A stretch of 50,887 nucleotides of DNA from an uncultured Candidatus Saccharibacteria bacterium (GCA_964525595.1 CAZGHF010000002.1:1-50887); one strand, 5' to 3'. Numbered from the stretch's first letter, positions 1,096 to 41,544 are shown. The notes: generated by a model not told the origin, from the sequence alone. Made by a program: numbers and translations.

Positions 1096-1098
1096 ATT

Positions 1099-1128
1099 TA
1101 CGTATTTTAATACGTATTTAATTACGTA
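1099..1128. promoter_or_regulatory. Three TACGTA palindromic hexamers at exact 12-bp phasing (1099, 1111, 1123) in the gap before paralog 2
   Basis: Read directly: TTTACGTATTTTAATACGTATTTAATTACGTAATTAAA. The same TACGTA-N6-TACGTA arrangement recurs at 30032/30044. Confidence 0.3.
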
Positions 1129-1136
1129 ATTAAATC

Positions 1137-2909: not shown

Positions 2910-2994
2910 GCATCGGCTCAAGCTCGGTTTTGGGTCGCAAACATATTTGAGTCAAGAAAGAACTTCTTGGTAAGAAGGAATTTTTTCTGATAGA

Positions 2995-4473: not shown

Positions 4474-4477
4474 ATTT

Positions 4478-6199: not shown

Positions 6200-6227
6200 G
6201 TGATTGATAACCAATAACTGGTAACTT

Positions 6228-9583: not shown

Positions 9584-9632
9584 TGAAAAGTAAGCGAAGT
9601 CCCGCCGAAGCTTTAGCGAAGGCGGACGAAGA

Positions 9633-11396: not shown

Positions 11397-11421
11397 TTAA
11401 GTACATCACCCACTTAAGAAC

Positions 11422-13122
11422 ATGAATCGAGAAACAAAACAATGCCAAAACTGTAAGCGGGATTTCACGATAGAGCCGGAGGATTTCAAGTTTTACGAAA
11501 AACTAAAAGTCCCGCCGCCGACTTTTTGCCCGGAATGCCGGTTTCAGCGGCGGCTTATGTTCAGAAATGAACGCACTTTTTACAAGCGCGATTGCGAGCT
11601 TTGCGGAAAAAGCGTTGTTGCTCTTTTTGCTCCGGAACGGGGGAGACGAGTTTACTGCCAGCCTTGCTGGTGGTCGGATAATTGGGACGGCACCGATTAT
11701 GGTATGGATTACGACCCCACCCGGAATTTTTTCGAGCAACTTAGAGAGTTAACTCTCAAAACTCCCTACATGTCGCTTATTACGGATTATTCCACGCTTG
11801 TAAACAGCGAGTACACCAACCACGTCGGTTCACTTAAAAATTGCTACCTCGTATTTAACGCCGATTATTGCGAAAATCTTTATTACGGCGCAGTCGTTAT
11901 TCACGCCAAAGATTCGATGGATGTTCTTTGTTTTGGTGAATCAGAGCTTTGTTATGAAGTTATTATGACTGGAAAATCCTATCAGACATTTTTTTCGGAG
12001 GACTGTAATAGCTGTACGGACGTATATTTTTCCAAGGCCTTGAGCGGTTGTGACCACTGTTTTGGCTGTATTAATTTACGTAACAAAAGTTACTATATTT
12101 TCAACAAAAAGTATTCTAAGGAAGATTACGAAAAAGAGATAAAAAAATACAAACTTGATTCTTTTTCTTCCGTAGAAGAACTAAAAAGGAAAGCCCGGGA
12201 TTTTTGGAATAAATTTCCCAATAAGTTTATGCATGGTACTCATAATTCAAATGTTTCGGGGGATTATATCGGCGCATCTAAAAACGCCCATTATATGTAT
12301 CAGGTAAGGCACGTGGAAGATGGTAGATACTGCCAGTTTATTACTCTTCCTCCGGCCAAAGACGTTTACGACCTTACGGAATGGGGAGCCGGGGCCGAGC
12401 TTGTTTGCGATAGCGTTACCGTGGGCGGCAACTCCCAGAATATCCAGTTTTGTTTTGCTTCTTGGTCGGGAGCGGTGAATACCCAGTATTGTATGTTTAC
12501 ACCTTCCTGTCAGAACCTTTTCGGTTGTGTAAATTTGCACAAGAAACAGTACTGCATCTTGAACAAGCAATACAGTAAAAATGAATATGAAACGTTGCGG
12601 AAGAAGATTTTGGCTGACATGGAAAGAAATCCTTACGTTGATAAAGTTGGGAGAGTATGGAAATATGGGGAGTTTTTACCCTATAACCTGAGCCCCTTTG
12701 CCTATAACGAAACCCATGCGGCTCAATTCTGGCCGCTTAACGAAAACCAAGTATCGGAGAAAGGATGGGAATGGCAAGAGCCTGTGCGTAGTTCACATCA
12801 GGTAACGATTCAACCTGATAAAATTCCGGACAGTATTAACGATGTCGATGAATCAATATTGCGGGAGGTTTTGAGTTGCGCTGACTGCAATAAAGCCTTT
12901 AAGTTAGTAAAAGGAGGATACGATATTCTAAAAAGATTCGGTTTTCCAATCCCGCGAAAGTGCCCGAACTGCCGGCATATGGAGAGAATGTCGCGCGTTA
13001 ACCCGCCGCGTTTGTGGGGGAGGGAATGCGCAAAATGTGGAAAAGACATTCAAACATCATATTCCCCGGACAGGAAGGAAATTGTGTATTGCGAAGAATG
13101 TTATCAGAAGGAAGTAATATGA
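11422..13122 (+). CDS. Cys-rich multi-zinc-ribbon protein, paralog 7 (short C-terminal subtype)
   Basis: 566 aa with the full motif set (CQNCKRDFTIEPEDFKFYEKLKVPPPTFCPECRFQRR ... CADC..AFKL ... CPNCR ... CAKCG..IQTSY..YCEECY). Confidence 0.85.
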   Translation: MNRETKQCQNCKRDFTIEPEDFKFYEKLKVPPPTFCPECRFQRRLMFRNERTFYKRDCELCGKSVVALFAPERGRRVYCQPCWWSDNWDGTDYGMDYDPTRNFFEQLRELTLKTPYMSLITDYSTLVNSEYTNHVGSLKNCYLVFNADYCENLYYGAVVIHAKDSMDVLCFGESELCYEVIMTGKSYQTFFSEDCNSCTDVYFSKALSGCDHCFGCINLRNKSYYIFNKKYSKEDYEKEIKKYKLDSFSSVEELKRKARDFWNKFPNKFMHGTHNSNVSGDYIGASKNAHYMYQVRHVEDGRYCQFITLPPAKDVYDLTEWGAGAELVCDSVTVGGNSQNIQFCFASWSGAVNTQYCMFTPSCQNLFGCVNLHKKQYCILNKQYSKNEYETLRKKILADMERNPYVDKVGRVWKYGEFLPYNLSPFAYNETHAAQFWPLNENQVSEKGWEWQEPVRSSHQVTIQPDKIPDSINDVDESILREVLSCADCNKAFKLVKGGYDILKRFGFPIPRKCPNCRHMERMSRVNPPRLWGRECAKCGKDIQTSYSPDRKEIVYCEECYQKEVI

Positions 13123-14876
13123 CAGAAACCAAAACCTGCCAAAACTGTAAACAGTCATTCACGATTGAACCCGAAGATTTCAACTTCTACAAAAAGATTG
13201 ATGTCCCGGCACCGACTTTTTGCTCCGATTGCCGGATGCAAAGGCGGATGCTGTGGCGCAACGAGAGGATTTTGCATAGGAGGAAATCAAGTCTTTCGGG
13301 TAAAGATTTGATTAGTCAATATCCCAAAGAAACTTCTTTCCCGGTCTACGGTGTAAGAGAATTTTATTCCCGCGACTGGGACCCGCCTTCCTTGAAATAT
13401 GATTCAAACCGGAGTTTTCTCGCTCAATTCCAAAGCTTATTATTGAAGACGCCGCGTTGTGCTCTTCTCACGGATATTCAGTCTCTTGATAATGGCAGTA
13501 TTTACCAGAACTCGGCCAGTCGGAACAAAAATTGCTATATGGTCAGCGCTTCGGGAGACAACGAAGATTGCCTTTATAGCAACAACCTCGATTACGCAAA
13601 AAACTCCATTGATTGTCTTTGGTGCCGGAGAGTTGAACATGCTTATGAATGTGTGGATTCAATTGATTGTGCCAGAACTTTCTTTTGTGACGAGTGCAGG
13701 CAATGCGTTGATTCTTGGTTTTTATACAATTGCCGGAACTGTCTTAATTGTTTCGGTTGCGTCGGTCTTCGGAGCAAATCATATTGTCTATGGAATAAAC
13801 AGCTGACTAAAGAAGAATACGAGTCACAGGTCGGAAAAATACTGGAAAGTTTGATTTTAGAACGAGTCCTTGAATTTCAATCAAAGCTCAAAAATATGGC
13901 ACTCGCTTTTCCGAGGAAGTACGCTCATATAGATCCTAAAAGCGCTCCGACTTGCACAGGTGATTACATTATCGATTCTCAGAACGTGTTTCAGGGTTTT
14001 ACGGTTCACGAGAGCCAGAACGTTCGGTATTGTTCCAAGCTCATAGCCGGCAAAGAGTGTCTGGATGTTAACGATTGGGGAGATCCGGCCGAGTTGTGTT
14101 ATGAAAGCATCACCGTCGGTAAGGGCGCCTATAAAGTTTTCTTTTCCTCAAATTGCTGGCCGGAATGCCGAGAGCTTCAGTATTGCGAATCCTGCTCAAG
14201 CTCTCACCACCTCTTTGGCTGCGTGGGATTGAAAAACGCATCGTATTGTATTTTGAACAAACAATATACAGAAGAAGAGTACAATCGGATTGTTCCGGAA
14301 ATAATCGACGAAATGAAGCGGCGCAAGGAATACGGCGAATTCTTCCCGAAAGAATTTTCTCCCTTTCCTTACAACGAAAGCATTGCCCAGGAGAATTTTC
14401 CTTTAACCAGAAAAGAAGCGGTTGAAAAAGGTTTTATCTGGCGGGAGAGCGACAGAAGGGATTATGAGATAACGATGAAAACTATGGATATTTCCCGGAG
14501 TATAAAACAGGTAGATGACTCTATGTTGCGGGAAATTATAGGTTGCGTCCACGGCGGCAAGTGCAATCACGAGTGTGCAACTGCTTTTAAAATTGTATCG
14601 GAGGAACTCAAGTTTTATAGGCGGTTCGGCTTACCCTTACCTCAACTTTGCTTTAATTGCCGGCACGCGGCGAGATTCAACCTGCGGAATCTGCCTAAAG
14701 TTTGGAAAGACTCATGTAAATGCGCCGGTAAAAAATCGGAAAACGGGATTTATCAAAACACCACCGAACACTTCCACGAAGCGGGGAAGTGTCCCAATGA
14801 ATTTGAGACATCATACTCTCCGGACAAAAAAGAAATAGTTTATTGCGGACAATGCTACAACGCTGAAATAATTTAA
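13119..14876 (+). CDS. Cys-rich multi-zinc-ribbon protein, paralog 8 (long C-terminal subtype)
   Basis: The family N-terminus MTETKTCQNCKQSFTIEPEDFNFY begins at the ATG at 13119, which overlaps the paralog 7 stop (ATGA). The 13014 start in the ORF track would add 35 non-homologous residues inside the upstream gene. Confidence 0.8.
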   Translation: MTETKTCQNCKQSFTIEPEDFNFYKKIDVPAPTFCSDCRMQRRMLWRNERILHRRKSSLSGKDLISQYPKETSFPVYGVREFYSRDWDPPSLKYDSNRSFLAQFQSLLLKTPRCALLTDIQSLDNGSIYQNSASRNKNCYMVSASGDNEDCLYSNNLDYAKNSIDCLWCRRVEHAYECVDSIDCARTFFCDECRQCVDSWFLYNCRNCLNCFGCVGLRSKSYCLWNKQLTKEEYESQVGKILESLILERVLEFQSKLKNMALAFPRKYAHIDPKSAPTCTGDYIIDSQNVFQGFTVHESQNVRYCSKLIAGKECLDVNDWGDPAELCYESITVGKGAYKVFFSSNCWPECRELQYCESCSSSHHLFGCVGLKNASYCILNKQYTEEEYNRIVPEIIDEMKRRKEYGEFFPKEFSPFPYNESIAQENFPLTRKEAVEKGFIWRESDRRDYEITMKTMDISRSIKQVDDSMLREIIGCVHGGKCNHECATAFKIVSEELKFYRRFGLPLPQLCFNCRHAARFNLRNLPKVWKDSCKCAGKKSENGIYQNTTEHFHEAGKCPNEFETSYSPDKKEIVYCGQCYNAEII

Positions 14877-27625: not shown

Positions 27626-27776
27626 TAGTTATCAAGAGCGCGGGGAGGGGACTGGCCCAGTGATCCGCCAACAACTTGTCCCGACGCGAGGTCGGGATAA
27701 AGTGCTAAATCCAGCCCTGTTTAGGGAAAGATAAAATTTTATCCTTCTTTCCTTCTTCAGGAAAGATTTTATTTTT
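27626..27776 (+). promoter_or_regulatory. SAM-I (S-box) riboswitch plus expression platform upstream of metK
   Basis: TTATCAAGAG...GGGGAGGGGACTGGCCCAGTGATCC...CCAACAAC...AAAGTGCTAAATCCAGC...AAAGATAA matches the S-box core, with P1 formed by TTATC/GATAA. It is followed by a CTTTCC-N7-GGAAAG hairpin and ATTTTATTTTT just before the ATG. Confidence 0.85.
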
Positions 27777-28832
27777 ATGTTTCACACGCCGAAAATTTAC
27801 ACAGTTGAGTCCGTTACTTCCGGCCATCCGGACAAAGTTTGCGACCAGATTTCTGACGCAATTTTGGATGAGTGTCTGCGGCAGGACCCAACCTCCCGGG
27901 CTGGCATTGAGGCTTTCGGCAGTCACGACCTTTTAGTTGTGGGTGGTGAGGTAACAACCAAAGCAAAAGTGGATTACAAGAGCATCGCCGCCCAGGTTTA
28001 TCGTGACATTGGCTACACCGATGATTTGAAAATCATTGTAAATGTCAGTGAGCAGTCGCCGGATATCGCCCAGGGGGTGGATACCGGCGGGGCCGGTGAC
28101 CAGGGGATTATGTACGGCTACGCTACGGATGAAACGCCGGATTGCTATATGCCAAAGGGAGTGATGCTGGTTCATAAACTGGCCCGGGGTTTGGAAGATT
28201 TGCGCCGGAGCGGCAAGTTCAATTGGTTGGGACCCGACGGCAAAACGCAGGCAACTCTCGATAACGGCAGAATTACCAAGATTTTAGTGAGTACCCAGCA
28301 CGACGACTCAGTTGAGCAGGCCGAAATTCGGGAGGCGCTTATTGAGAACTTGATAAAGCCTTTAGTGGAAGATTTAAACGACGTGGAAATTTTGGTAAAT
28401 CCCACCGGTAAGTTCCTTGTGGGCGGCTTTACGGCCGATACGGGTCTTACCGGCCGGAAAATAATGGTGGATACCTACGGCGGTCTTGCCCCTCATGGCG
28501 GCGGCTGTTTCTCCGGCAAGGACCCGACCAAAGTGGACCGCTCCGCCGCTTACATGTGCCGGTATATCGCCAAAAACGTGGTTGCCAAGGGTCTTGCCAA
28601 AAAGTGCCTTGTTTCCGTCTCTTACGCCATCGGTCGGGCCGAGCCCTTGATGGTTGAGATTCAAAACGAGGAAGGTAAAAGTTTGAGCGGGTTTTTGGAA
28701 GATAATAACTTTGATTTCCGGCCGGCGGCAATAATCGAGCGCTTGGACTTGCGCCGCCCGATATATTTTAAAACAGCCGCTTACGGCCACTTCGGCCGCC
28801 CGGGTTTCTCCTGGGAAGCTGTTCTTAATTAA
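27777..28832 (+). CDS. metK: S-adenosylmethionine synthetase
   Basis: ESVTSGHPDKVCDQISDAILD, GAGDQGIMYGYA and GGGCFSGKDPTKVDRSAAY signatures. Confidence 0.9.
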   Translation: MFHTPKIYTVESVTSGHPDKVCDQISDAILDECLRQDPTSRAGIEAFGSHDLLVVGGEVTTKAKVDYKSIAAQVYRDIGYTDDLKIIVNVSEQSPDIAQGVDTGGAGDQGIMYGYATDETPDCYMPKGVMLVHKLARGLEDLRRSGKFNWLGPDGKTQATLDNGRITKILVSTQHDDSVEQAEIREALIENLIKPLVEDLNDVEILVNPTGKFLVGGFTADTGLTGRKIMVDTYGGLAPHGGGCFSGKDPTKVDRSAAYMCRYIAKNVVAKGLAKKCLVSVSYAIGRAEPLMVEIQNEEGKSLSGFLEDNNFDFRPAAIIERLDLRRPIYFKTAAYGHFGRPGFSWEAVLN

Positions 28833-28920: not shown

Positions 28921-29304
28921 ATGCCACTCACGGGAGAGAAACTTGAAAGGCTACGGCTTCTTCTTTCCTTGGAGCCGAAGAAGCTCACCGACGATGAGAT
29001 TACGGATCTCCTTGAGAACAGGGAGGAGCTCGCCGGTTTCACCCGCATATCCCGGGGGTTTCCCTACACCGTGGAGGCGGTGCAACGCTATCGGGCTCGT
29101 AGGACGGACCTCTCGCTGAAGTCCACGAAAGATCTCGAGGCGCTCTTGGAGAGTATCCTGGCTAGGCGGCGGGAAGATCTCGGCGAGGACGACTCAAGGG
29201 ATCCGATGAGTTCTCCCGTCACCAATTCGTCCGCCAATCTCGACGAACGCATCATCCGTGAACTCCTCGAGGAGCGGGAAGCGGCAAGTGCCGTTGCGAC
29301 CTGA
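28921..29304 (+). CDS. Hypothetical 127-aa protein, GC-rich ORF
   Basis: Good SD (GGAGGTAAAGGATG), an upstream TTGACT-N17-TATTCT element and a downstream terminator. No recognisable family motif. Confidence 0.55.
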   Translation: MPLTGEKLERLRLLLSLEPKKLTDDEITDLLENREELAGFTRISRGFPYTVEAVQRYRARRTDLSLKSTKDLEALLESILARRREDLGEDDSRDPMSSPVTNSSANLDERIIRELLEEREAASAVAT

Positions 29305-29334
29305 CCATGGGGCAAGAGGGAACAACAACAGCAT

Positions 29335-29368
29335 ACAGGGCAAGCTTCGGCTTGTCCTGTGTTTTTTT
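29335..29368 (+). terminator. Intrinsic terminator
   Basis: ACAGGGCAAGC-TTCG-GCTTGTCCTGT hairpin followed by GTTTTTTT. Confidence 0.75.
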
Positions 29369-29454
29369 GAAATCCTTTTTGAACTCCTTAGTTTTATTGC
29401 CAGAACGCTGTTTTAGTTATATTCTGTTTTTAGTAACCCAAAAAGGAGGTGGTT

Positions 29455-29544
29455 ATGAATACGCCCCTATTGGCTGTGGTTATAATCGGCCTGTTCCTGG
29501 TGATTATGGTAGAGGAAAAGCCTTCTTCCGGCACTCGCCAGTAG
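29455..29544 (+). CDS. Possible 29-aa hydrophobic peptide (MNTPLLAVVIIGLFLVIMVEEKPSSGTRQ)
   Basis: Strong SD (AAAGGAGGTGGTTATG). The ORF is below the track's size cut-off. One predicted TM segment. Confidence 0.35.
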   Translation: MNTPLLAVVIIGLFLVIMVEEKPSSGTRQ

Positions 29545-29705
29545 TGCCGATTGGGAGAACCGGCCGGAGCAAATGACCGTCGTTGGCACAAGCCGCGGCG
29601 GTTACTTCTTTTTGTATTTGTTGACAAAATAGACATTTCTTTATATGCTTTTCGCCAGCATTAGGTTGTAAACCAGGCAAATGACTGATAATCCAGGAGG
29701 AGAAA

Positions 29706-29885
29706 ATGAACAATCCTGAAGGCGAAGTTCACACGCTCATTAGTGGACGGCCGCCCTGCGGTTTCTCCGATGATGTGCCGGGAAACTGGCCGCCGGGGCA
29801 CCTCTGGACCGATTACCGGGACGTGAAAAACATCACTTGTCCGGGCTGCAGGGAAGCTGCAGAAAAACTGCAGAGAAGCGAATGA
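29706..29885 (+). CDS. Hypothetical 59-aa Cys-containing protein (MNNPEGEVHTLISGRPPCGF...CPGCREAAEKLQRSE)
   Basis: SD CCAGGAGGAGAAAATG. Upstream TTGACA (29621-29626)-N17-TATGCT. Followed by a terminator. GC-rich like its left-hand neighbours. Confidence 0.5.
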   Translation: MNNPEGEVHTLISGRPPCGFSDDVPGNWPPGHLWTDYRDVKNITCPGCREAAEKLQRSE

Positions 29886-29925
29886 AAACACCGTAAAAAC
29901 TACGGTCATTCTAAGCAAACCAATC

Positions 29926-29965
29926 ATGCCCCCGAGGTTAAACAACCGAGGGGGCATTCTTTGTT
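29926..29965 (+). terminator. Intrinsic terminator
   Basis: ATGCCCCC...GGGGGCAT GC-rich stem followed by TCTTTGTTG. Confidence 0.55.
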
Positions 29966-29968
29966 GTG

Positions 29969-30028
29969 GTTGCCCCATGTTTTAACATATGTTAAAACAT
30001 GGGGCAACATTGGTTTAGGTGGGGTTTG
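29969..30028. repeat. 60-bp repeat, copy 1: 40-bp perfect palindrome plus a 20-bp tail
   Basis: GTTGCCCCATGTTTTAACAT|ATGTTAAAACATGGGGCAAC followed by ATTGGTTTAGGTGGGGTTTG. Identical to 31117-31176. Confidence 0.95.
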
Positions 30029-30088
30029 ATTTACGTACTTATTTACGTAAATTATTTATGCCGAATTTATTGAGGTATAATAGGGGAT

Positions 30089-30142
30089 ATGGCTAAACGC
30101 TCTGACAAAAGGGATATTAGGAAACTAACCCGCCTGGGCTAA
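30089..30142 (+). pseudogene. 17-codon remnant resembling the N-terminus of an AbrB/SpoVT-type protein
   Basis: MAKRSDKRDIRKLTRLG* parallels MTEKNIRKITKMAGGG of the intact AbrB-like gene at 31257. Both lie downstream of a copy of the 60-bp repeat and a TGAGGT..TATAAT element. Confidence 0.3.
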
Positions 30143-30146
30143 ACTT

Positions 30147-31028
30147 ATGAATTTTGAGGTTAATAAATCAGAACAAGGAGAGTCAACTCCAGAAATAGTT
30201 GAAGACCCGCGTATTGAAGAAATATTAGAAGATTTACGCAAGCCAGAGAATAGACAATCAGACGAGGCATTTTTTAGTGCTCATATTGAGGCAGTGACAC
30301 GATTAGAAGAGTTGTTTCCAGAAGAATCAGAGATGTCAGAGGTTGCGCAGATAAAATATTTGGCAGAAATTTTTCATTATGAGGTGGATCGTCTTATCAT
30401 AGAAGATGTAGGAAAGAATTATCTGCATCAAGCCATAGAGGTTAGTATGCCTATAGAGCTTATTAGTCTTAGTTTTGAACACGAGGCAGCGCATCAAGAA
30501 AGAGCAGATGAAATAAAAGACCAAATTCATGATAAAAAAGCAGCTCTTGTTGTTGAACTTTTAGATAATACAGAGGAGGAGTTATACCAACACTTAGGCG
30601 AGAATTTTTTAGAGAGAATAGATAGTGATACTCAAGAAAGAGTGGAGGGATTATTAAGACATTTTCAGGATAGCCTTCCGTATAAGTTAGATAAAGATAA
30701 AAAAGAAGAAGCATTACAAAGAGAACAAGAACGTATTGAAAAGAGCGGCGAAGCTAGAAGATATGTAATAGCGAGCAAGATCCAAGAGTTTCTTTTAGAG
30801 AATAATATCTTGCCCGGCAGTACTTATTTTTTGGGTCCAAAACGGATAAGGGAAATCTTGGAGGTAGTAAGTGAAATAAAGGATTCGCAATTAGCCAAAG
30901 GCTACGCTCATGTAATCAGAAACCGTTTGGTGGGTTCGTCAATAGTTCAGATGTTTGATAAATCTTCAGTGTCACCGCTCGACTCAGTAGAGGTTGAGAA
31001 GTTTGTTTTAGAATTAGTAGGGAAGTAA
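30147..31028 (+). CDS. Hypothetical acidic, predicted all-helical 293-aa protein
   Basis: Long ORF bracketed by the two 60-bp repeat copies. No recognisable motif. A GGCTAATTCG-TG-CGAATTAGCC hairpin follows at 31079-31100. Confidence 0.6.
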   Translation: MNFEVNKSEQGESTPEIVEDPRIEEILEDLRKPENRQSDEAFFSAHIEAVTRLEELFPEESEMSEVAQIKYLAEIFHYEVDRLIIEDVGKNYLHQAIEVSMPIELISLSFEHEAAHQERADEIKDQIHDKKAALVVELLDNTEEELYQHLGENFLERIDSDTQERVEGLLRHFQDSLPYKLDKDKKEEALQREQERIEKSGEARRYVIASKIQEFLLENNILPGSTYFLGPKRIREILEVVSEIKDSQLAKGYAHVIRNRLVGSSIVQMFDKSSVSPLDSVEVEKFVLELVGK

Positions 31029-31116
31029 AAATAAATAAGAACATATTGATTTCTTTGAAATTTGAAATCCGGCTCATCGGCTAATTCGTGCGAATTAGCC
31101 AATGGGGTTGGGGAAT

Positions 31117-31176
31117 GTTGCCCCATGTTTTAACATATGTTAAAACATGGGGCAACATTGGTTTAGGTGGGGTTTG
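31117..31176. repeat. 60-bp repeat, copy 2
   Basis: Identical by eye to 29969-30028. Confidence 0.95.
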
Positions 31177-31181
31177 TGAGG

Positions 31182-31240
31182 TGATATAATTAATTCATAG
31201 ATTAATTACTGAATTAAATCAGTAATTAAATCAGTAATTC
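31182..31240 (+). promoter_or_regulatory. Extended -10 (TGATATAAT) plus repeat-type operator before the AbrB-like gene
   Basis: ATTAATTACTGA (31201-31212) is the inverted copy of TCAGTAATTAA(A). AATTAAATCAGT is tandemly repeated at 31212-31235. Confidence 0.45.
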
Positions 31241-31256
31241 TATGGGGAGGAGAAAA

Positions 31257-31451
31257 ATGACGGAAAAGAATATAAGAAAAATCACCAAAATGGCCGGTGG
31301 CGGAAGTTTTGGTATTACCTTGCCGATTGAGATGGTGCGCAAGTTAAAGTGGAGAGAAAAGCAGAAGGTGGTTGTAAAATTGAGAGGTAAGAAAATCACA
31401 GTGGAGGATTGGCCTGCCTCGCCGAAGCGCAGCACAGGCGGGAAGAAGTAA
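31257..31451 (+). CDS. AbrB/MazE/SpoVT-family DNA-binding protein
   Basis: GGSFGITLPIEMVRKLKWREKQKVVVKLRGKKITVE is a typical swapped-hairpin beta-barrel motif. SD GGGGAGGAG lies before the ATG at 31257. Confidence 0.75.
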   Translation: MTEKNIRKITKMAGGGSFGITLPIEMVRKLKWREKQKVVVKLRGKKITVEDWPASPKRSTGGKK

Positions 31452-31452
31452 T

Positions 31453-32289
31453 ATGGAACAAATAACGATAACGAAAGATTTCTATTTAAAATTAGGCGTT
31501 TCTGCAAACGAGCTTAAGATAGTAAACAAAGGATTAGCCTTGTCAGCTGGACTAAAATTAAGCCCTTTTGCTAGACCCCGTCGGGTTGAAATGTTGCAAG
31601 AAGCAATAAGTTGGCCGAAAGGTAAGAATCAAGAAGATCGCAAAATCACAAAACTATATAAAGCCGGCGGTTTTGAAGTTGTTGTTGGTAAACCTGGCAA
31701 AGAAGCTGCCCCCGATTTTAGAGGAAGACATTATATAACAGGTGAGGTGACGAACAATGCGAACGATATGAATCCTTCAATTTTAAAAAGAGGTAAGAAG
31801 ATTGAAGGTGATTTAACTTTTAGTGATATGTTTGAGAAAATCGAACATCTTATGCATGCCGATGTTTTCGGATTAGAAATTCTTGGTATGTTAATTTTCC
31901 GTATGGCATTTATGTTAGATCATCAAAAAGACAAAAAAGAACACTGGCGATATATTCCTCCAGAGACCTCGCTACGTTCACTCAAAAAACGAATACTTAA
32001 AATCAATGATGTCCCAATAGAGATATTTTTGTATTTCTTGGATGTTTTAGCACTAAACGAGGATGTTAAAATGCATACTCTAGGTTATGAGAATGCACGG
32101 CATGACTACGGACGAATAAATACTCTTCTAACCTTTGTTAATTTAATAGCTGTTCTATTGAATCGGCGTTCTCTCGCTAAATTTGCTGGTGCATTTGCTA
32201 GGCCACCTTCTGGTATGGCGCCCTTGCCTAAAATTAAAGATCTTTTTGATACTTTTCCTCTTTTGTCGCCTAACTTCTTAAAATCTTAA
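31453..32289 (+). CDS. Hypothetical 278-aa protein, translationally coupled to the AbrB-like gene (candidate toxin or restriction component)
   Basis: The start is 1 nt after the AbrB-like stop (TAATATG). The 3' end overlaps the convergent methyltransferase gene by 4 nt. I could not identify a nuclease motif with confidence. Confidence 0.6.
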   Translation: MEQITITKDFYLKLGVSANELKIVNKGLALSAGLKLSPFARPRRVEMLQEAISWPKGKNQEDRKITKLYKAGGFEVVVGKPGKEAAPDFRGRHYITGEVTNNANDMNPSILKRGKKIEGDLTFSDMFEKIEHLMHADVFGLEILGMLIFRMAFMLDHQKDKKEHWRYIPPETSLRSLKKRILKINDVPIEIFLYFLDVLALNEDVKMHTLGYENARHDYGRINTLLTFVNLIAVLLNRRSLAKFAGAFARPPSGMAPLPKIKDLFDTFPLLSPNFLKS

Positions 32290-33737
32290 ATTCGTTTTCG
32301 TCCTCGAATTAGCTTATATTTTGGAGTAATATAACCGTTAGCTAAACGGTCGTTTATTATATTGCAATAATTTTTATCAATTTCAGCTGAGATAAATCGT
32401 CGGTTTAGTTTTTTGCAGACATCTATTTCTGCTCCACTACCTCCAAAAAGAACAAAAACAACGTTTTTAGGTCTTGTCGATGCTTTTATCAGCACTTCAG
32501 TTAGTTTTTGAGGAATTTGACAAGCGTGATAGGTTTTTTCCTTGCTGACATTTTTGACGAGGTTGAATTCGAGCCACGAATACGGCATTCGACCCGCCGA
32601 GCCATTTGCTAAATTCCGTTTAATTCTTCGGTCGTTAGGATTTTTATAAGGAAGAGCAACGGCGTTTTTGAAGAATTTATTTTTTGCATTTTTTCGAACA
32701 TGTAGAATGCTGCGGTGTGCCGTTGTGAATCGTTTTGGTGTATGTCCTACATTGGTGTTATAAACCCAAACATATTCGTTAATATTTGGAAAATGTGAGT
32801 CTAAATATTTAACACGAAGGTGAGCGTTTTGTTGAGGATAATTCATCGTAAAAAAATTGCCGTCTTTTTTAAGTACACGCATTGATTCTCTTGTGAGTTC
32901 TATATACCAATTAATATAATCATCAAATTTCTTCTTGTAATTATTTTCACCATATCTTACGCCAACGTTATAATCCGGGTCACCAAAAATCATATCAATG
33001 CTGTTGTCTGGCAAGTCTCTAAGAACGTTCATCACATCGCCATTATAAACTTTGTTAACGTAGTCTGATATTTTACCTCGTTGTTTTTCACTTTTCTTTG
33101 AAGACAAGACAAAAGTATTAACTGGTTGTTCTGTTTCGTTACTTCTTATTACATCAATTAATATCCCTTGGATTTTAATATCTCTTTCACCTCTCTTTAT
33201 AATTATCGGTTCAAAGTTTTTATTCGCTGACTGCAAGCGGATGTGGCCGCGTTCTTTGTAGAATTTTTTTAAAGTCGCTTCGGAGTTATCAATCAACGCG
33301 ACTACTTTTTGGCCATTCTCAGCGGTTCGTTGGTGTCGGACTAAAATGATGTCGCCGTCTTTTACACCTTCTTCAATCATGCTTTCACCCTCTACTCGCA
33401 GGGCATAGATTTCTGATGAGGGAGGTATTTTATTCTTTGGAACCGCGATGGTTTCGCTTGGAACGTCAAATAAAGTTAGTGGCCGGCCGGCGGCGATTGT
33501 ACCGAGTAAGGGAACTTGAATCATGGGCACTGATTCTACTATTTCAATTCCTCTTTTATGATTTCTATTTAGTTTGATTTGCCCTTTCTTTTCTATCTTT
33601 TGCAGGTGTTCTTGAACAGTCCCTAAAGATTTTAGCCGGAAGTTTTTGGCTATCTCCTCAAAGGTGGGGGAGTAGCTATTTTTTTTGATATAGCTTTTTA
33701 CGAAATCAAAAACCTCTTTTTGTCGGACTGTAAGCAT
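32286..33737 (-). CDS. Fusion protein: full-length LexA (wHTH plus S24 peptidase) joined to a beta-class N6A/N4C DNA methyltransferase
   Basis: LexA part: MLTVRQKEVFDFV...SPTFEEIA, an Ala-Gly site in GTIAAGRP, catalytic Ser in VEGESM and Lys in EATLKKF. MTase part: motif IV FGDPDYNVG, followed much later by motif I VLFGGSGAE (PF01555-like order). The track start, GTG at 33752, is an alternative. Confidence 0.85.
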   Translation of the reverse strand: MLTVRQKEVFDFVKSYIKKNSYSPTFEEIAKNFRLKSLGTVQEHLQKIEKKGQIKLNRNHKRGIEIVESVPMIQVPLLGTIAAGRPLTLFDVPSETIAVPKNKIPPSSEIYALRVEGESMIEEGVKDGDIILVRHQRTAENGQKVVALIDNSEATLKKFYKERGHIRLQSANKNFEPIIIKRGERDIKIQGILIDVIRSNETEQPVNTFVLSSKKSEKQRGKISDYVNKVYNGDVMNVLRDLPDNSIDMIFGDPDYNVGVRYGENNYKKKFDDYINWYIELTRESMRVLKKDGNFFTMNYPQQNAHLRVKYLDSHFPNINEYVWVYNTNVGHTPKRFTTAHRSILHVRKNAKNKFFKNAVALPYKNPNDRRIKRNLANGSAGRMPYSWLEFNLVKNVSKEKTYHACQIPQKLTEVLIKASTRPKNVVFVLFGGSGAEIDVCKKLNRRFISAEIDKNYCNIINDRLANGYITPKYKLIRGRKRI

Positions 33738-33750
33738 TTTATAGTTATCC

Positions 33751-33821
33751 ACAACCTACGGCTTTTCTACGGTATAAATATATTATAATCAAAGATGACC
33801 CGTAGATAAACCGTAGGTTGT
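33751..33821. promoter_or_regulatory. Quasi-palindromic divergent promoter/operator region
   Basis: ACAACCTACGG (33751-33761) faces CCGTAGGTTGT (33811-33821). CTACGG occurs at 33756 and 33767. CCGTAG occurs at 33800 and 33811. Spacing within each pair is 11 bp. TATAAATATATTATAAT sits in the centre. Confidence 0.6.
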
Positions 33822-33861
33822 CCACAGGGTAAAGGTCGTAGAAGTAATTAAATTCAATAAA

Positions 33862-36580: not shown

Positions 36581-38221
36581 ATGGCTGACGTCCTGACCCC
36601 GACGCAACGTTCCTATAACATGTCGATGATCCGGTCGCGGAATACCGGTCCCGAGGCTTTACTTGCGGAGATGCTTATCCGGAATGGTTTTTGTGTCTAT
36701 GAATTCAGTCCGGGGGATATTCCGGGGAAACCTGATTTTTACTTTCGCAAGCAAAAAGTAGCTGTGTTTGTCGACGGCTGTTTCTGGCATCGATGCAAGC
36801 GATGTTTCAAGGCTCCTGAAACCAACACTGAATTTTGGAACAGGAAAATAACTGCGAACATTGCAAGAGACCGGAAAACCAACCGTATTTTGAGCAGGGA
36901 AAACATCCGGGTAGTCAGGATCAAGGAACACGAACTAAAAAAGGATCAGAAAAAGGTTTTACAGAAACTCAAAGCTGTTTTAGTAGAGACCCGCCAGCTC
37001 AAAACACTCGATTTATTTGCAGGCGCTGGGGGTTTCTCGGAAGGTTTTATACATGCCGGATGTGATATGGTCGCACACGTCGAAATGGATAAAGATGCGT
37101 GTAATACCATTCGCACAAGAATGATCTATCATGCACTTAAGAAAAAAGGGTTGATACGCGAATACAAAAAGTATCTGCTCAGCCGAATAAGTATCGCCGA
37201 ACTTGTGGCAAAATACGGTTTGCAAAAAGAATATGACTCAGTCATTCAGGCAAGGATTGACAAGGGTAACTATGCGGAACTTATAAATCAAGTGAGGGAA
37301 CGTCTCGGAAATCATGACCTCGATATAATAATCGGCGGTCCCCCTTGTCAGGCCTACTCGCATATCGGTCGCTCATCAGATAAAAAGCGGATGAGGAGAG
37401 ATAAACGAAAGTTCCTGTACGAATATTATATTGAGTTTTTAAAAGCATTTCGACCGAAGGTGTTTGTGTTTGAAAATGTGCCGGGACTCCTGAGTGCGGG
37501 CGGGGGTATTTATCTGAGTAAAATGCGGAAACTTATGCGTGAAGCCGGATATCGCACAGACTATCAGGTATTGAATGCAGCTGACTTCGGTGTACCTCAA
37601 GACAGGAAACGGATTATTCTGATCGGCTGGAATAAAAAATCAGGTATTGATAAATACCCCAATTTTGAGTCGGTAAACAGAAGTTATACGGCCGAGGATT
37701 TCCTGAAAGATCTTCCGGTACTGAAAAGCGGCGACGGGGAGAGCGCTCTTGAATTTAAAAGCAGGTCATCTCTTTTACACAGACTCGGAATTATTCAGCA
37801 GAATATACCTGTCCTACTTGGTCATGTTGCTCGTCCTCACACTAAACAGGACCTGGAAATATACCGGCTGGCAGTAAAACATAAAAATAAAGGCAAAAAT
37901 ATCAAATACAATGAACTACCGGAACGATTAAAGACACATAAAAATCAGACCGGCTTCCTTGACCGCTTCAAGGTGGTTGATGCTACTGCGGTAACGAGTC
38001 ATACTGTCATCGCCCATATTTCGAAGGACGGTCATTATTATATTCACCCAGATATCAGACAGAATAGATCATTAACGCCACGTGAGGCAGCCCGTCTCCA
38101 GACGTTTCCTGACAATTTTAAGTTTGAGGGTAGTAGAACCTCCCAGTTTAGACAAATCGGGAACGCCGTGCCCCCTATGCTTTCCAAAATAATCGCCAAA
38201 ACGATACTTAACTTCACATAA
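36581..38221 (+). CDS. Fusion protein: Vsr very-short-patch-repair endonuclease joined to a C5-cytosine DNA methyltransferase
   Basis: Vsr part: LTPTQRSYNMSMIRSRNTGPE...GKPDFYF...VFVDGCFWHRC. Dcm part: motif I LDLFAGAGGFSEGF, motif IV GGPPCQAYS, motif VI ENVPGL, motif VIII PQDRKRIILIG, and motifs IX/X TPREAARLQTFPDNF...QIGNAVPP. Confidence 0.9.
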   Translation: MADVLTPTQRSYNMSMIRSRNTGPEALLAEMLIRNGFCVYEFSPGDIPGKPDFYFRKQKVAVFVDGCFWHRCKRCFKAPETNTEFWNRKITANIARDRKTNRILSRENIRVVRIKEHELKKDQKKVLQKLKAVLVETRQLKTLDLFAGAGGFSEGFIHAGCDMVAHVEMDKDACNTIRTRMIYHALKKKGLIREYKKYLLSRISIAELVAKYGLQKEYDSVIQARIDKGNYAELINQVRERLGNHDLDIIIGGPPCQAYSHIGRSSDKKRMRRDKRKFLYEYYIEFLKAFRPKVFVFENVPGLLSAGGGIYLSKMRKLMREAGYRTDYQVLNAADFGVPQDRKRIILIGWNKKSGIDKYPNFESVNRSYTAEDFLKDLPVLKSGDGESALEFKSRSSLLHRLGIIQQNIPVLLGHVARPHTKQDLEIYRLAVKHKNKGKNIKYNELPERLKTHKNQTGFLDRFKVVDATAVTSHTVIAHISKDGHYYIHPDIRQNRSLTPREAARLQTFPDNFKFEGSRTSQFRQIGNAVPPMLSKIIAKTILNFT

Positions 38222-38222
38222 T

Positions 38223-40418
38223 ATGGCTCGAGAAAAAAATAAAACAGGTGTTTTTAAAATCAAACCGGCAGCCAGACATATATTGACTATCGGTCGTGAC
38301 TTGATAAAAGATAACGCAACCGCTCTTTTAGAGCTGGTTAAAAACAGTTATGACGCCGATGCAACGCAGGTGACCATTGAATTTTCTTCCGTAAAAAGTA
38401 GGCGGGGGGCGGGTATAAAGATTAGCGTGCAGGATAATGGTCTTGGCATGAATTATCAGACAGTGACTACAGTGTGGATGGTTCCATCAACTCTCTACAA
38501 ACAACAGAAGGAGTTTTTGAGCGAAATAAAACAGCGTCCGTTACAAGGAAGGAAAGGTATCGGAAGATATGCCGCTTCTATTTTAGGAGATGAGCTTCAT
38601 CTTAAAACAACTCAAGAAAGAGAAGTAACTACTCTTTCGATATATTGGAAAGATTTTGAAGAAAAAGAATATCTTGATGATATTGAAATCTCAATTAACA
38701 GGGGAAAAACAAGTGACCCCGCCGGTACATGTATTGAAATTATCGGTAGTACTGACAAATTAAGAGAGTGGGATAAGCCTCAAATCGAGAGCTTTATAAA
38801 AGAATTGCGGCGCCTTATTTCTCCTATACACGAAAAGGATATAAAAACCGATTTTGAAATAAAACTCCTTTTTAAAGATTTTCCGGTTGATGCATATAAG
38901 AACGAAACAATAACCATCGAACCATTTCCAATTCTGGAGGTATTCGATTATCGCATATCGGGAGAAGTATCAGGGACCGGTGAAGCAAATCTTGTATTTG
39001 AAAATGGGACCGCCGGAACTGTTAGTGAAAAGTTTAAAATTCACATTCTCCTTGATGACGGAGCAAAATACTGCGGTAAGTTAAGCGTGGATTTTAAAAT
39101 ATATGACAAGGACGCTGACTCTATAGAGAATCTTATAGAAAAAATTGGAGACCGGACGAATGGTTCTAAATCTGGCGAAAAACTCAGTAAGAATGAAGCA
39201 AGAAGCCTCCTAAAACAAATTTGTGGTATTGCTGTTTATCGGGGTGGCTTTCGCATCCGTCCGCACGGAGATCCGGGATATGATTGGCTCCAACTTGACC
39301 GCCGGCGCGTTCAAAAACCAGGAGTGCGCGTAGGCAGTGACCGAGTAAGCGGATTCATTGAAATAGAACCCGAGGAAAGATCTTGTCTGGAAGAGAAAGC
39401 AAGTCGTGACGGCTTAAAAGAAAATAAGTACTTCCTTGGTCTTACTCAGATTGCCACCCGTATCCTTCTTGAGGCGGAAAATAAGCGTTATCAATTTAAG
39501 CTGAAAACAGGTCAGGAAAACTCACAGCGTAATCTTATTAGGAAACTCGAGAATCTCTTTGATTTTTCAGATGTTACCCAGAGTATAGAAAAAAAACTCG
39601 CGGATCATGAGATGCCGAAATCGGAGCGTAAAAAGATTGTCGGTTTAATTGATGCGCGTGTCGAGGAAAGTAACAAGGTTGTTGAAGATGTAAAACGCAT
39701 CATTGCCATCTATCAAGGACAAGCTACACTCGGAAAGATTGTCAGGGTAGTCCTACACGAAGGCAGGAATCCCTTAAGCTATTTTCAGAATCAAATACCC
39801 GTCATTAAAAAGTGGGTTGATGAGTTAAAAACGGAATTTAATAAAAATCTTCTAAATCAACTCGTTGACCGCCTCGACGCTATTAAACGACAGGCTGAGT
39901 TGCTAATTAATCTTTTTAGAAAAATCAGTCCCCTGGCCGCCCAACGCAAGGCAAACCCCGCTACTTTTTATTTGAAGAAAAACCTGGAGGAGATCATCGA
40001 TATTTTCTCGCAAGAATTCAAAGAGAAAAAGATCAAAATTAGACTGGATTGTGATCCTGATATACAAGTTACTGCGTGGCCTGAAGATATAAGCCAGACA
40101 ATAGTAAATCTCCTTGACAACAGTTTGTACTGGCTTGCACAGAATAAAAATAGCGCCAGGAAAGTTACAATAACCGGAACGATTATGGGTGACACGTTTC
40201 AGTTGACTTACAAAGACAATGGCCCAGGAATTGAAAAAAAGTTTATACGGGATGAACTCATATTTGAGCCGGGATTTACAACAAAACCTGATGGAACTGG
40301 TCTCGGGTTGGCAATTGCGGGAGAGGCTATGGAAAGGAGCGGGGGTAAGTTGACCGCTGTTTATTCAGAATCTGGTGCACATTTTGAGATAGATTTTCCT
40401 TTACAATCAAAAAAGTAA
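38223..40418 (+). CDS. Cytoplasmic MORC/Hsp90-like GHKL ATPase domain fused to a histidine-kinase core (HisKA plus HATPase_c)
   Basis: N-terminal part: LLELVKNSYDADATQVTIEF...VQDNGLGM...GRKGIGRYAASILG. C-terminal part: H-box VLHEGRNPLSYF, N-box VNLLDNSLYW, G1 DNGPGI, G2 GTGLGLAIAGE. No TM segment. The start is 1 nt after the Vsr-Dcm stop. Confidence 0.8.
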   Translation: MAREKNKTGVFKIKPAARHILTIGRDLIKDNATALLELVKNSYDADATQVTIEFSSVKSRRGAGIKISVQDNGLGMNYQTVTTVWMVPSTLYKQQKEFLSEIKQRPLQGRKGIGRYAASILGDELHLKTTQEREVTTLSIYWKDFEEKEYLDDIEISINRGKTSDPAGTCIEIIGSTDKLREWDKPQIESFIKELRRLISPIHEKDIKTDFEIKLLFKDFPVDAYKNETITIEPFPILEVFDYRISGEVSGTGEANLVFENGTAGTVSEKFKIHILLDDGAKYCGKLSVDFKIYDKDADSIENLIEKIGDRTNGSKSGEKLSKNEARSLLKQICGIAVYRGGFRIRPHGDPGYDWLQLDRRRVQKPGVRVGSDRVSGFIEIEPEERSCLEEKASRDGLKENKYFLGLTQIATRILLEAENKRYQFKLKTGQENSQRNLIRKLENLFDFSDVTQSIEKKLADHEMPKSERKKIVGLIDARVEESNKVVEDVKRIIAIYQGQATLGKIVRVVLHEGRNPLSYFQNQIPVIKKWVDELKTEFNKNLLNQLVDRLDAIKRQAELLINLFRKISPLAAQRKANPATFYLKKNLEEIIDIFSQEFKEKKIKIRLDCDPDIQVTAWPEDISQTIVNLLDNSLYWLAQNKNSARKVTITGTIMGDTFQLTYKDNGPGIEKKFIRDELIFEPGFTTKPDGTGLGLAIAGEAMERSGGKLTAVYSESGAHFEIDFPLQSKK

Positions 40419-40431
40419 AGAATTCAATTAT

Positions 40432-41544
40432 ATGAAACTTATAATTGTTGAGGACGATAAAGATCAAATCATTTCCTATCTGGATACAATCACAGTCGTA
40501 AATTCATCTGGTGGTGGTCATAATATAGAAAACCCTAAGGTAGTGGGAACTTTAACAGAAGCACTCGAGGCGATAGAAAACAAGCACTTTGACGGAGCAA
40601 TAGTCGATCTGAAACTTTCTCGTAGTAACCGAGACAAGACCGACGGAAACGAAATCATCGGGCAGATTGTAAATTTAAAAAGGTTTCCTGTTTTTGTTTA
40701 CTCATCTTTTCTTGAAGATATTGACCCCGCCATAGAGAATTCTTTTTTCTTTCAGCAATTTGAAAGGACTACTGTCCCGTTTCGGGATGTTGTAATAAAA
40801 CTTCATGATATTTATAAAACCGGAGTAACAAAAATTCTTGGTCGAGACGGTGCCATAGAAAGCCATCTGACTAAAATCTTCTGGAAGCATGTGGCTGAGT
40901 CATTTGAGGGTTTATGTCAAAAAGGGATTACCGAGAAGCAACTCCTTCGATATATTACTGGGCATTTATATGAATATCTTGAACTCGATGATATGGCTGA
41001 GTCATTTAAAAAATATTTACCGGAAGAGGTTTATATTAAACCCTCTATAAAACTTAATTTTTTTACGGGGGGTATCATTAAAGACAAAAACTCCCAGAGA
41101 AACTTTATAATTCTCACACCATCCTGCGACATCGTCCAAAACAAAGCTAAAAGTATGCTTCTGGCGTCTGTCCGTAGCCTTACAGATGATCCTGTACGCG
41201 ATCTCAAAACCAAATCTACAAACAGAATTCCTGCTGATCTTCGGGGAGCACAGAGGCAAGTTGCGGAGGAAGAAAAAAAGACGGCTAAAAAACAGCTTGA
41301 AGATTTAATACGAAATAATTATTCTCACAAATATTATTTCCTGCCCAGAAGCAAGAATTTCGAGGGAGGTTTAATTAATTTCCAGGATTTGGAATCCGTA
41401 GAACCAGCCGCAATGAACGGGAGATTTGATATTATTGCAACTATAAATAATCAATTTCTGAAAGACATCGTCGCAAAGTTTTCGTTTTATTATTCCCGTC
41501 AGGGCGCACCGGAAGTCGACTTTTCTGTTGCTGATCTCCCGTAG
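40432..41544 (+). CDS. Receiver (REC)-domain protein with an uncharacterised C-terminal domain of about 250 aa
   Basis: MKLIIVEDDKDQI..., phospho-acceptor context FDGAIVDLKL, and VFVYSS. The remaining 250 aa have no motif I recognise. The start is 13 nt after the kinase gene. Confidence 0.7.
   Translation: MKLIIVEDDKDQIISYLDTITVVNSSGGGHNIENPKVVGTLTEALEAIENKHFDGAIVDLKLSRSNRDKTDGNEIIGQIVNLKRFPVFVYSSFLEDIDPAIENSFFFQQFERTTVPFRDVVIKLHDIYKTGVTKILGRDGAIESHLTKIFWKHVAESFEGLCQKGITEKQLLRYITGHLYEYLELDDMAESFKKYLPEEVYIKPSIKLNFFTGGIIKDKNSQRNFIILTPSCDIVQNKAKSMLLASVRSLTDDPVRDLKTKSTNRIPADLRGAQRQVAEEEKKTAKKQLEDLIRNNYSHKYYFLPRSKNFEGGLINFQDLESVEPAAMNGRFDIIATINNQFLKDIVAKFSFYYSRQGAPEVDFSVADLP

Follow-up and report, generated by a model that had tools for sequence, protein, structure and literature searches.

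A LexA repressor fused to a DNA methyltransferase in Candidatus Saccharibacteria: a predicted local regulator of a restriction-modification-like cassette

We have analyzed a stretch of 50,887 nucleotides (nt) from an uncultured Candidatus Saccharibacteria bacterium (GCA_964525595.1, CAZGHF010000002.1:1-50887), called the window throughout, and in particular one gene within it that encodes a LexA protein fused to a DNA methyltransferase (MTase). The fusion gene converges on a partner gene that is preceded by a small AbrB/MazE-fold gene; on its other side a divergent region of 108 nt separates it from an HNH-like gene and a DGQHR gene (Table 1). The fusion occupies one open frame on the minus strand (32286..33752), with no stop and no frameshift, and the ATG at 33737 is preferred over an upstream GTG because orthologues begin at the same MLT(K/V)RQK residues. 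A missed stop or frameshift between the LexA and MTase parts, a concern raised in a preliminary description made from the sequence alone, was looked for: the open reading frame (ORF) is single and continuous, and the orthologues are alike in this respect.

The first 200 amino acids (aa) of the protein read as a complete LexA, with a winged helix-turn-helix (wHTH) and a Peptidase S24 domain, just as the preliminary description had claimed. The lexA equivalog TIGR00498 of NCBIfam scores 183.8 bits over aa 2-200 (cutoff 110.95) and LexA structures in the PDB align with the same residues, with E-values down to 3e-32. The motifs IAAG, GESM and TLKK, which supply Ala83-Gly84, Ser119 and Lys157, are all present, as that description had it. 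The remainder of the protein matches PF01555 N6_N4_Mtase in a Pfam search (125.7 bits, aa 247-462) and, over the full length of the profile, the PADLOC MTase_II entry PDLC03337 (6.4e-121); in the PDB this half aligns with 8URK (an unnamed 'Methyltransferase'), M.MboIIA, CcrM and M.RsrI. The order of its motifs is permuted, with motif IV (DPDY, 253-256) preceding motif I (FGGSGAE, 431-437), so that the assignment to the beta class made in the preliminary description also stands. Motif IV is DPDY and not the canonical DPPY, the second Pro being replaced by Asp. This form is invariant in 24 of 24 fusions aligned and is therefore probably functional, though non-canonical; FGDPDY(N) served as the scan pattern that recovered unfused orthologues across phyla. 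In an AlphaFold2 (AF2) model of the whole fusion the LexA half is confident. The MTase half is poorly modelled (pLDDT <50), because the alignment is almost invariant there, and the model of this half was left unused. On domain criteria the protein is thus a member of both the LexA/S24 family and the beta-class amino-MTases.

Table 1. Features of the fusion locus and its surroundings (window coordinates).
Feature	Coordinates	Strand	Basis or remark
LexA-MTase fusion gene	32286..33737, stop included	-	Uninterrupted ORF, 483 aa; Pfam and NCBIfam domains
LexA wHTH (aa 2-63)	33549..33734	-	PF01726 LexA_DNA_bind, 62.9 bits; AF2 pLDDT 84-91
Recognition helix within the wHTH (G39-T-V-Q-E-H44)		-	Residue 43 co-varies with operator sequence
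Ala83-Gly84 scissile bond codons	33486..33491	-	AG conserved among fusions
Peptidase S24 domain (aa 76-193)	33159..33512	-	PF00717, 101.9 bits; PDB LexA matches
Ser119	33381-33383	-	GESM motif, S24 dyad
Lys157	33267-33269	-	TLKK motif, S24 dyad
Inter-domain linker, variable and hydrophilic (aa 199-226)	33060..33143	-	pLDDT ~30; identity 0.47
Beta-class N6/N4 DNA methyltransferase domain (aa 223-481)	32295..33071	-	PF01555; PADLOC MTase_II
Operator O1 (predicted)	33756..33772	+	CTACGG-N5-CTACGG, tandem, 11-bp period
Operator O2 (predicted)	33800..33816	-	CTACGG-N5-CTACGG, inverted relative to O1
Overlapping back-to-back -10 hexamers, TATAAT on each strand	33782..33789	both	Between O1 and O2; sequence reading
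Perfect DnaA-box consensus TTATCCACA	33745..33753	+	Only perfect copy in window; 8 nt upstream of fusion ATG
DnaA-box-like 9-mer TTGTCCACA, 1 mismatch	33818..33826	+	Flanks O2; part of a direct repeat
Convergent partner gene, candidate restriction endonuclease, 278 aa	31453..32289	+	3' end overlaps fusion by 4 nt
AbrB/MazE-fold gene, 69 aa, candidate controller (C-protein analogue)	31242..31451	+	PF04014, 28.9 bits
Controller-partner operon promoter/operator region	31182..31239	+	TGATATAAT as extended -10, followed by TAAATCAGTAAT repeats, both tandem and palindromic
Cys-rich HNH-like gene, 73 aa	33862..34083	+	PF01844, 17.6 bits, below cutoff of 21.4; divergent, downstream of O1/O2
DGQHR (DndB/DpdB-like) gene, 544 aa	34189..35823	+	TIGR03187, 154 bits; PADLOC DpdB, 3.8e-27

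The identical 483-aa protein is encoded by 6 independent contigs, and all three domains are present in each of the best 120 of the database clusters, with 63-78% identity along the entire protein. Most of the named clusters belong to Patescibacteria, the Candidate Phyla Radiation (CPR): Woese-, Yanofsky-, Kerfeld- and Falkowbacteria and Parcubacteria. The database names of these orthologues are either 'transcriptional repressor LexA' or 'methylase'. When species-representative genomes were scanned, about 35 fusions of full length came to light, almost all of them from the CPR, together with unfused orthologues of the MTase (48-80% identity) from Rosettibacter, Treponema, Chloroflexi, Helicobacter, Thermoplasmata and other phyla. 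This spread suggests a widely transferred enzyme of Type II kind, to which the addition of LexA is essentially confined to the CPR. Among 24 close orthologues the mean pairwise identity differs by domain, being 0.50 for the wHTH, 0.68 for the S24 core, 0.47 for the linker and 0.85 for the MTase; the linker keeps both its frame and its length. At a few loci (L040, L046, L079) lexA and the MTase gene are separate or frameshifted. The region that contains the fusion, at ~30-36 kb of the window, is a GC-poor island (0.36-0.39, versus 0.42-0.53 in the flanks). About 850 nt within 28921-30147 (about 29300-30150) contain no long ORF and no Rfam match; with the high-GC metK region on one side and the low-GC defence island on the other, this stretch may be the island junction. 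A phage or prophage origin was ruled out: relatives in IMG/VR are limited to 3 loci, all unfused, the window is free of tRNAs, and the Pfam-scanned genes that flank the island include no integrase.

The determinants of LexA self-cleavage are an Ala-Gly or Cys-Gly bond and a Ser/Lys dyad (PMC8565304). The Ala-Gly pair, and with it the dyad, is kept in 23 of 24 close orthologues, the exception being P0114. Ala-Gly, Ser and Lys are invariant in 52 of 52 diverse fusions, whose MTase parts are of the N6_N4, Eco57I/MmeI, D12, N6_Mtase and C5 types, and (A/C)G with Ser and Lys is kept in 92 of the 93 S24-covering genes of the independent metagenomic set described below. On these alignments, the scissile site and the dyad are under strong purifying selection, and their near-invariance across independent fusions argues that cleavage is used.

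The LexA part alone was searched against representatives at 50% identity. Among its nearest relatives, long proteins (400-890 aa) that begin with LexA predominate, and LexAs of the ordinary size, ~200 aa, come in at ~45% identity; identity to stand-alone LexAs is 40-47%. LexA_DNA_bind and Peptidase_S24 are present in all 52 long representatives sampled, with C-termini that match N6_N4_Mtase (31), Eco57I (7), the D12 class (5), N6_Mtase (5), MmeI_Mtase (4), C5 (3) and TaqI_C (2). By these profile matches the LexA module belongs to a clade that is fused to at least five DNA-MTase families, or stands alone beside DpnI. The closest stand-alone member of the clade, P0245, is 58% identical to the LexA part in the window, and its gene is followed directly by one for a DpnI-family methyl-directed restriction endonuclease. 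The stand-alone LexA that precedes DpnI at L083 (1125-2551), and also at L084, has 213 aa and the same 58% identity; the L083 gene has two DnaA boxes and the operator GTTCGG-N5-GTTCGG. One contig, L009, carries two LexA-MTase fusions 5.6 kb apart, with a C5 (2795-4375) and an N6_N4 (10001-11455) domain. The two do not share an operator class (TTTCGG against ACTTTCT), and their recognition helices differ as well (HEH against HYY), which is reminiscent of the incompatibility groups by which C proteins avoid cross-talk. Variants in which the wHTH is joined to an MTase and S24 is missing, with DnaA box and tandem operator retained, are seen at L041 (5920-7077), L044 (6001-7083), L105, L142, L160 and L165.

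In the 108-nt divergent region there are inverted arms of 22 nt (33751-33772 and 33800-33821) that are 91% complementary, each with one CTACGG-N5-CTACGG repeat. These two repeats, O1 and O2, flank the AT-rich core of divergent promoters. No consensus -35 for the divergent promoters was found in the window; most promoters of relatives have an extended -10 but lack a good -35, and their -10 lies 9-11 nt 3' of the second repeat. CTACGG-N5-CTACGG sites occur nowhere else in the 50.9-kb window. A tandem repeat with an 11-bp period is found at the same position in 36 of 38 orthologous or sister loci, its sequence varying by lineage. There is precedent for direct-repeat LexA boxes with 11-bp spacing in GTTC-N7-GTTC of the Alphaproteobacteria (PMC8565304).

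The sequence of the repeat follows residue 43 of the recognition helix. Where this residue is E, Q, D or K the hexamers are of the form ..CGG (23 loci), and where it is F or Y they are ..CTA (14 loci) or ..CGA (5 loci), a pairing without exception (Fisher p = 2e-12, uncorrected for relatedness). As an independent test, a metagenome scan for the composite element TGTGGATAAC-TTTCGG-N5-TTTCGG yielded at least 120 exact matches. Residue 43 is Q (71) or E (39) in all 110 adjacent LexA-type genes that cover the helix, and 111 of the 112 evaluable copies lie no more than 260 nt from the start of a LexA-type gene, either co-directional or divergent. The genes beside the element encode fusions to N6_N4, D12, C5, N6_Mtase/Eco57I or MT-A70 MTases, or stand-alone proteins. 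The bare operator was not found elsewhere in 1.59 Mb of fetched DNA, and in L192 it is absent upstream of recA. Because their sequence co-varies with the recognition helix across lineages, we take the repeats to be the operator. The preliminary description had proposed the repeats at 33751-33821 as the operator of the LexA part, and their position and 11-bp period also agree with this. From these comparisons we conclude that the tandem hexamers are the predicted operator of the fused wHTH and that regulation is probably local; since the operator is confined to its own locus, in the window as in the metagenomic copies and the fetched DNA, the protein is not filed as an SOS master regulator.

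A DnaA-box 9-mer accompanies the operators. At least one perfect TTATCCACA occurs within 170 nt upstream at 27 of 34 fusion loci, versus 0 of 26 unfused orthologues, and the density of the box upstream of fusions is ~5 per kb versus 0.016 per kb elsewhere, a difference of ~300-fold. The box is also present with the C5 fusion of L009 and with the stand-alone LexA beside DpnI. Neither its orientation nor its distance is fixed, and it shows no co-variation with the recognition helix; it is therefore probably read by another protein, for which DnaA is the obvious candidate. The same grounds speak against TGTGGATAA being a -35 element or belonging to the site of the wHTH, and both readings were rejected. 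The 1.59 Mb of fetched DNA contained no dnaA gene and no oriC. As most of these promoters depend on an extended -10 and lack a good -35, activation by a factor that binds the box is conceivable.

The surroundings of the fusion point to a Type II restriction-modification (R-M)-like cassette. A convergent partner is present at all 31 fusion loci with enough downstream sequence, and falls into a long (275-314 aa, 11 loci) and a short (208-243 aa, 20 loci) size class. Distant homologues of the long class lie co-directionally beside unfused MTase orthologues at seven loci of other lineages. In L087 a LexA-N6_N4 MTase converges with Tsp45I, which is preceded by an HTH_3 gene, and in L009 the LexA-C5 MTase converges with a PDDEXK_5 protein, with an HTH_3 protein in the controller position. 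In the window this position is taken by the AbrB/MazE-fold gene, which ends 1 nt before the start of the partner. It is a small, co-oriented candidate regulator upstream of the putative restriction gene and has a promoter/operator region of its own, with the TAAATCAGTAAT repeats, at 31182-31239, which is unrelated in sequence to the LexA operator; its fold is not of the Xre type. These convergent partners, together with Tsp45I, PDDEXK_5, DpnI and AbiU2 as neighbors, agree with the restriction or defence setting that had been proposed for the module. A perfect palindrome of 46 nt (AATGTTGCCCCATGTTTTAACATA / TATGTTAAAACATGGGGCAACATT; 31114-31159), which separates a 293-aa ORF from the promoter of the AbrB-like gene, may terminate transcription in both directions or bind a protein. 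Counted over 363 kb (the window plus 30 fusion loci), no tetranucleotide is avoided more strongly than GATC (observed/expected 0.39, z = -29). CTAG, TCGA and GGCC are rare as well, and such depletion fits heavy pressure from R-M systems. For the recognition site GATC is no more than a hint, since control CPR loci avoid it too, though less strongly (0.57).

On the divergent side, the copy of the HNH-like gene in the window falls short of the Pfam cutoff, so that its name in the preliminary description holds only in part: homologues are divergent to fusions at L020 and L024, and a 74-aa HNH gene at L097 (641-862), also divergent and with the same N-terminal residues (MAIS.ETK), passes the cutoff with 23.8 bits. 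The DGQHR gene is probably co-transcribed with the HNH-like gene, and a DndB-like gene is likewise divergent at L005. A gene for a HEPN AbiU2 abortive-infection (Abi) toxin shares the bidirectional operator at L122 (3436-4047), a divergent gene at L158 (5370-5996) has a weak RnlA-toxin-like match, and other or unknown genes face the bidirectional element at further loci. Such an arrangement suggests that toxins or effectors divergent to LexA-type genes are LexA-gated. The proposal that the repeats control the divergent HNH and DGQHR genes is upheld as to position, O1 and O2 being placed to cover both promoters; control itself is plausible, since the same bidirectional element faces HNH at L097 and AbiU2 at L122.

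Taking these observations together, we think it rather probable that the fusion is a local, autorepressing MTase of an R-M-like cassette whose repression is released, probably by self-cleavage, after DNA damage. The cassette would have been acquired horizontally by a CPR/Patescibacteria genome, with the fusion as its modification methyltransferase. The protein probably dimerizes through the S24 domain, and the two wHTH domains of the dimer would bind the tandem hexamers 11 bp apart. Binding at O1 and O2 would repress both the fusion gene and the divergent HNH-like and DGQHR genes; with such self-repression the concentration of the MTase would set its own synthesis, as in HTH-MTases of the SsoII/EcoRII type. 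Ser119 and Lys157 would cut at Ala83-Gly84 and so free the DNA-binding domain from the S24-MTase body. The most likely stimulus of cleavage is RecA in filaments, formed where DNA is damaged or restricted; this activated RecA is suggested as the natural trigger, since SOS is induced when under-methylated host DNA is restricted (PMC3874152). Cleavage would derepress both promoters and give a burst of methylase and divergent effectors while the chromosome is being cut or repaired. The presumed endonuclease would be under its own small AbrB-type controller, and the DnaA boxes by the operators may provide an additional input from replication status. Of this scheme, the architecture and its conservation, the R-M-like neighborhood, the co-variation between operator and helix and the confinement of the operator to its own locus in the DNA scanned were observed; we infer that a dimer binds and represses, that it is cleaved and by what trigger, what becomes of the MTase once cut, that the partner is a nuclease and that DnaA binds.

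Several observations weigh against the scheme. DPDY departs from the (D/S)PP(Y/F) consensus, though unfused orthologues have DPDY too. In several relatives the operator is upstream of the -10 of the LexA gene and not over it, and the strength of autorepression may therefore vary between relatives. The long and short classes of partner show marginal homology (hhalign probability 23%, E 9e-4). No family match to the partner was found in Pfam, NCBIfam, PADLOC or PDB sequence searches, nor any fold match by Foldseek versus the PDB (best TM ~0.15), with an AF2 model that is confident (pLDDT 86, pTM 0.89); it is thus the position of the partner that suggests a nuclease. The remaining points concern cleavage. 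The S24-less natural variants keep the wHTH, operator and box (L041, L044; 4 of 40 genes of the metagenomic set), and P0114 has lost both Ala-Gly and Lys. S24 catalysis therefore seems dispensable in some lineages, and the domain could serve mainly for dimerization. The same variants favor a pure autoregulator, in which the LexA module is only a dimeric DNA-binding domain, the counterpart of the N-terminal HTH in M.SsoII or M.EcoRII, S24 serves for dimerization and self-cleavage has no physiological role; autorepression by HTH-MTases, moreover, needs no protease (PMC3874152). We nevertheless regard this explanation as unlikely, given that three independent samples show little or no variation at Ala-Gly, Ser and Lys. 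The catalytic residues of LexA are not part of its dimer interface, and dimerization alone would not demand a conserved dyad.

If cleavage is used, its outcome could differ from release of repression. A suicide or abortive-infection switch would have cleavage destabilize or inactivate the methylase, so that damage or phage signals reduce methylation, after which the partner nuclease and the derepressed HNH/HEPN effectors kill the cell or destroy replicating phage DNA. This reading draws on the effector- or toxin-like nature of the divergent genes (HNH in the window and L097, HEPN AbiU2 in L122, DGQHR) and on the stand-alone clade member that presumably controls the nuclease DpnI. LexA fragments are degraded by ClpXP and Lon in E. 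coli. CPR bacteria, furthermore, rely mainly on R-M and Abi systems (PMC4742961). We judge such a switch distinctly improbable, as nothing points to instability of the S24-MTase fragment, more MTase would be made on derepression, and most loci lack a recognizable toxin divergent to the fusion. It is very improbable that the protein is the housekeeping LexA, a global SOS repressor joined to an orphan epigenetic MTase with no R-M system, in spite of its score above the lexA equivalog cutoff, its NCBI name 'transcriptional repressor LexA' and the fact that no other lexA was seen within the window. In the DNA scanned the operator keeps to its own locus, and the region upstream of the L192 recA lacks it; two fusions of different operator class share the L009 contig; the DNA-binding domain and the operator are hypervariable while the MTase is 85% conserved; and the convergent partner is always present, the island is GC-poor, and sister fusions pair with known restriction enzymes. 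The probability of an assembly or annotation artefact that joins two adjacent genes is close to nil. The split or frameshifted loci L040, L046 and L079 are what might suggest it, against which stand the identical protein on 6 contigs, the continuous ORF in more than 120 clusters and in ~35 species representatives, and the in-frame linker of conserved length; on the strength of the independent contigs and orthologue clusters, an artefact, including a frameshift, was excluded.

Further features of the window lie outside the cassette. A second modification or defence module (36581-41544) consists of a Vsr-Dcm fusion of 546 aa (PADLOC DrmMII-like, 5e-166), a 731-aa protein with two GHKL ATPase domains and a weak REase_II match, and a 370-aa protein of no assigned function; the module resembles the MORC/MutL-like ATPase-associated restriction systems. 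At 16-14876, 8 paralogous genes of 359-620 aa stand in tandem; their products share 29-42% identity and have Cys-rich N-termini with CxxC pairs. No Pfam match was found in the two members scanned, and a ninth, interleaved ORF (2995-4473) has no blastp match to the other members. An S-adenosylmethionine (SAM) riboswitch (27626-27737; RF00162, 57.3 bits) precedes a gene for S-adenosylmethionine synthetase (27777-28832), and the 26-30 kb region around this metK gene is unusually GC-rich (0.51-0.53).

R-M systems must balance a nuclease, which acts as a toxin, against a methylase, which acts as the antitoxin, a problem that is known to be solved by C proteins, by HTH-MTases or by promoters sensitive to methylation. 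If the scheme proposed here is true, the methylase-fused self-cleaving LexA is a fourth solution, a signal-responsive and irreversible release that couples DNA damage to the expression of methylase and effectors. CPR bacteria are largely without CRISPR and rely on R-M and Abi systems (PMC4742961), and the fusion appears to be a lineage-wide solution among them. Tentatively, and with doubts that outweigh our confidence, we suggest that 'SOS-gated restriction-modification' may be general in CPR/Patescibacteria. Self-cleaving LexA paralogues of a dedicated, rapidly diversifying clade, fused in cis to MTases of at least five unrelated families or alone with DpnI, would each recognize a tandem operator of their own by a code at helix residue 43 (E/Q with CGG, F/Y with CTA/CGA), and each operator would be paired with a DnaA box, with activated RecA and DnaA as inputs. 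Were this so, a feedback would raise methylation when the cell's own chromosome is cut or re-synthesized. The operator classes could then represent regulatory 'immunity groups' like those of C proteins. The co-variation of residue 43 with the hexamer is a testable DNA-recognition code for LexA-type winged helices, and the family is a possible set of orthogonal, cleavable repressors for synthetic biology. The DnaA box raises the idea that replication status feeds into the control of defence genes. There is also a warning for annotation, as many 'LexA' proteins of Patescibacteria would be local R-M regulators, with consequences for reconstructions of SOS networks there.

Repressors that respond to damage or stress and control defence systems or mobile elements include phage CI, SetR of integrative and conjugative elements, and the WYL-domain proteins BrxR and CapW. 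Like the proposed regulator, these hold defence or mobile genes low until there is a DNA-damage signal, and CI and SetR share the S24 chemistry. They differ in that they are stand-alone, none being known to be fused to a methyltransferase that it regulates, and the WYL regulators sense ligands and do not self-cleave. With canonical LexA (TIGR00498; E. coli, B. subtilis, Thermotoga; 1JHH, 3JSO, 3K2Z) the fusion shares the two-domain fold, the Ala-Gly site and the Ser/Lys dyad. Unlike canonical LexA, it is covalently joined to an enzyme and appears to be local, with no SOS regulon detected in the DNA scanned; even close orthologues differ greatly in DNA-binding domain and operator, and one genome can have several paralogues. 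The C proteins (C.PvuII, C.AhdI, C.Esp1396I) are likewise dedicated transcriptional regulators of R-M cassettes, and the specificity classes found here (..CGG, ..CTA and ..CGA), two of them on one contig, recall their incompatibility groups. The separate small regulator that precedes the candidate restriction gene also resembles the C-protein layout. C proteins, however, are small Xre-type HTH dimers that have no protease and usually activate the restriction gene, whereas the regulator described here is LexA-type, fused to the modification enzyme and predicted to repress.

The closest parallel in function is autorepression by the N-terminal HTH of an MTase, an established mechanism, and the preliminary description was right that HTH-MTases which autoregulate R-M systems are known: M.SsoII, M.Ecl18kI, M.EcoRII and M.ScrFIA (PMC3874152). 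The fusion shares with them an N-terminal DNA-binding domain on an R-M MTase and an operator at its own, often divergent, promoter, so that the level of MTase feeds back on transcription; the overlapping divergent promoters are as in Ecl18kI. The preliminary description had not recognized a self-cleaving module between HTH and MTase as one already described. No account of a LexA-MTase fusion was found in a full-text literature search that was only partly completed, and the architecture is unmentioned in a review of R-M regulation (PMC3874152) and in CPR genomics papers (PMC4742961 among them); it is, however, not rare, being abundant in metagenomes. The operator of the HTH-MTases is palindromic, whereas that of the fusion is a tandem repeat. 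Also unlike them, the fusion has a DnaA-box 9-mer beside its operator, and its regulatory module occurs on at least five MTase families. Above all it contains a complete LexA with conserved catalytic residues, which would offer an induced and irreversible release. Provisionally, then, an S24 module placed between the HTH and the methyltransferase of an R-M system is a new combination of two known elements, the HTH-MTase autoregulator and LexA.

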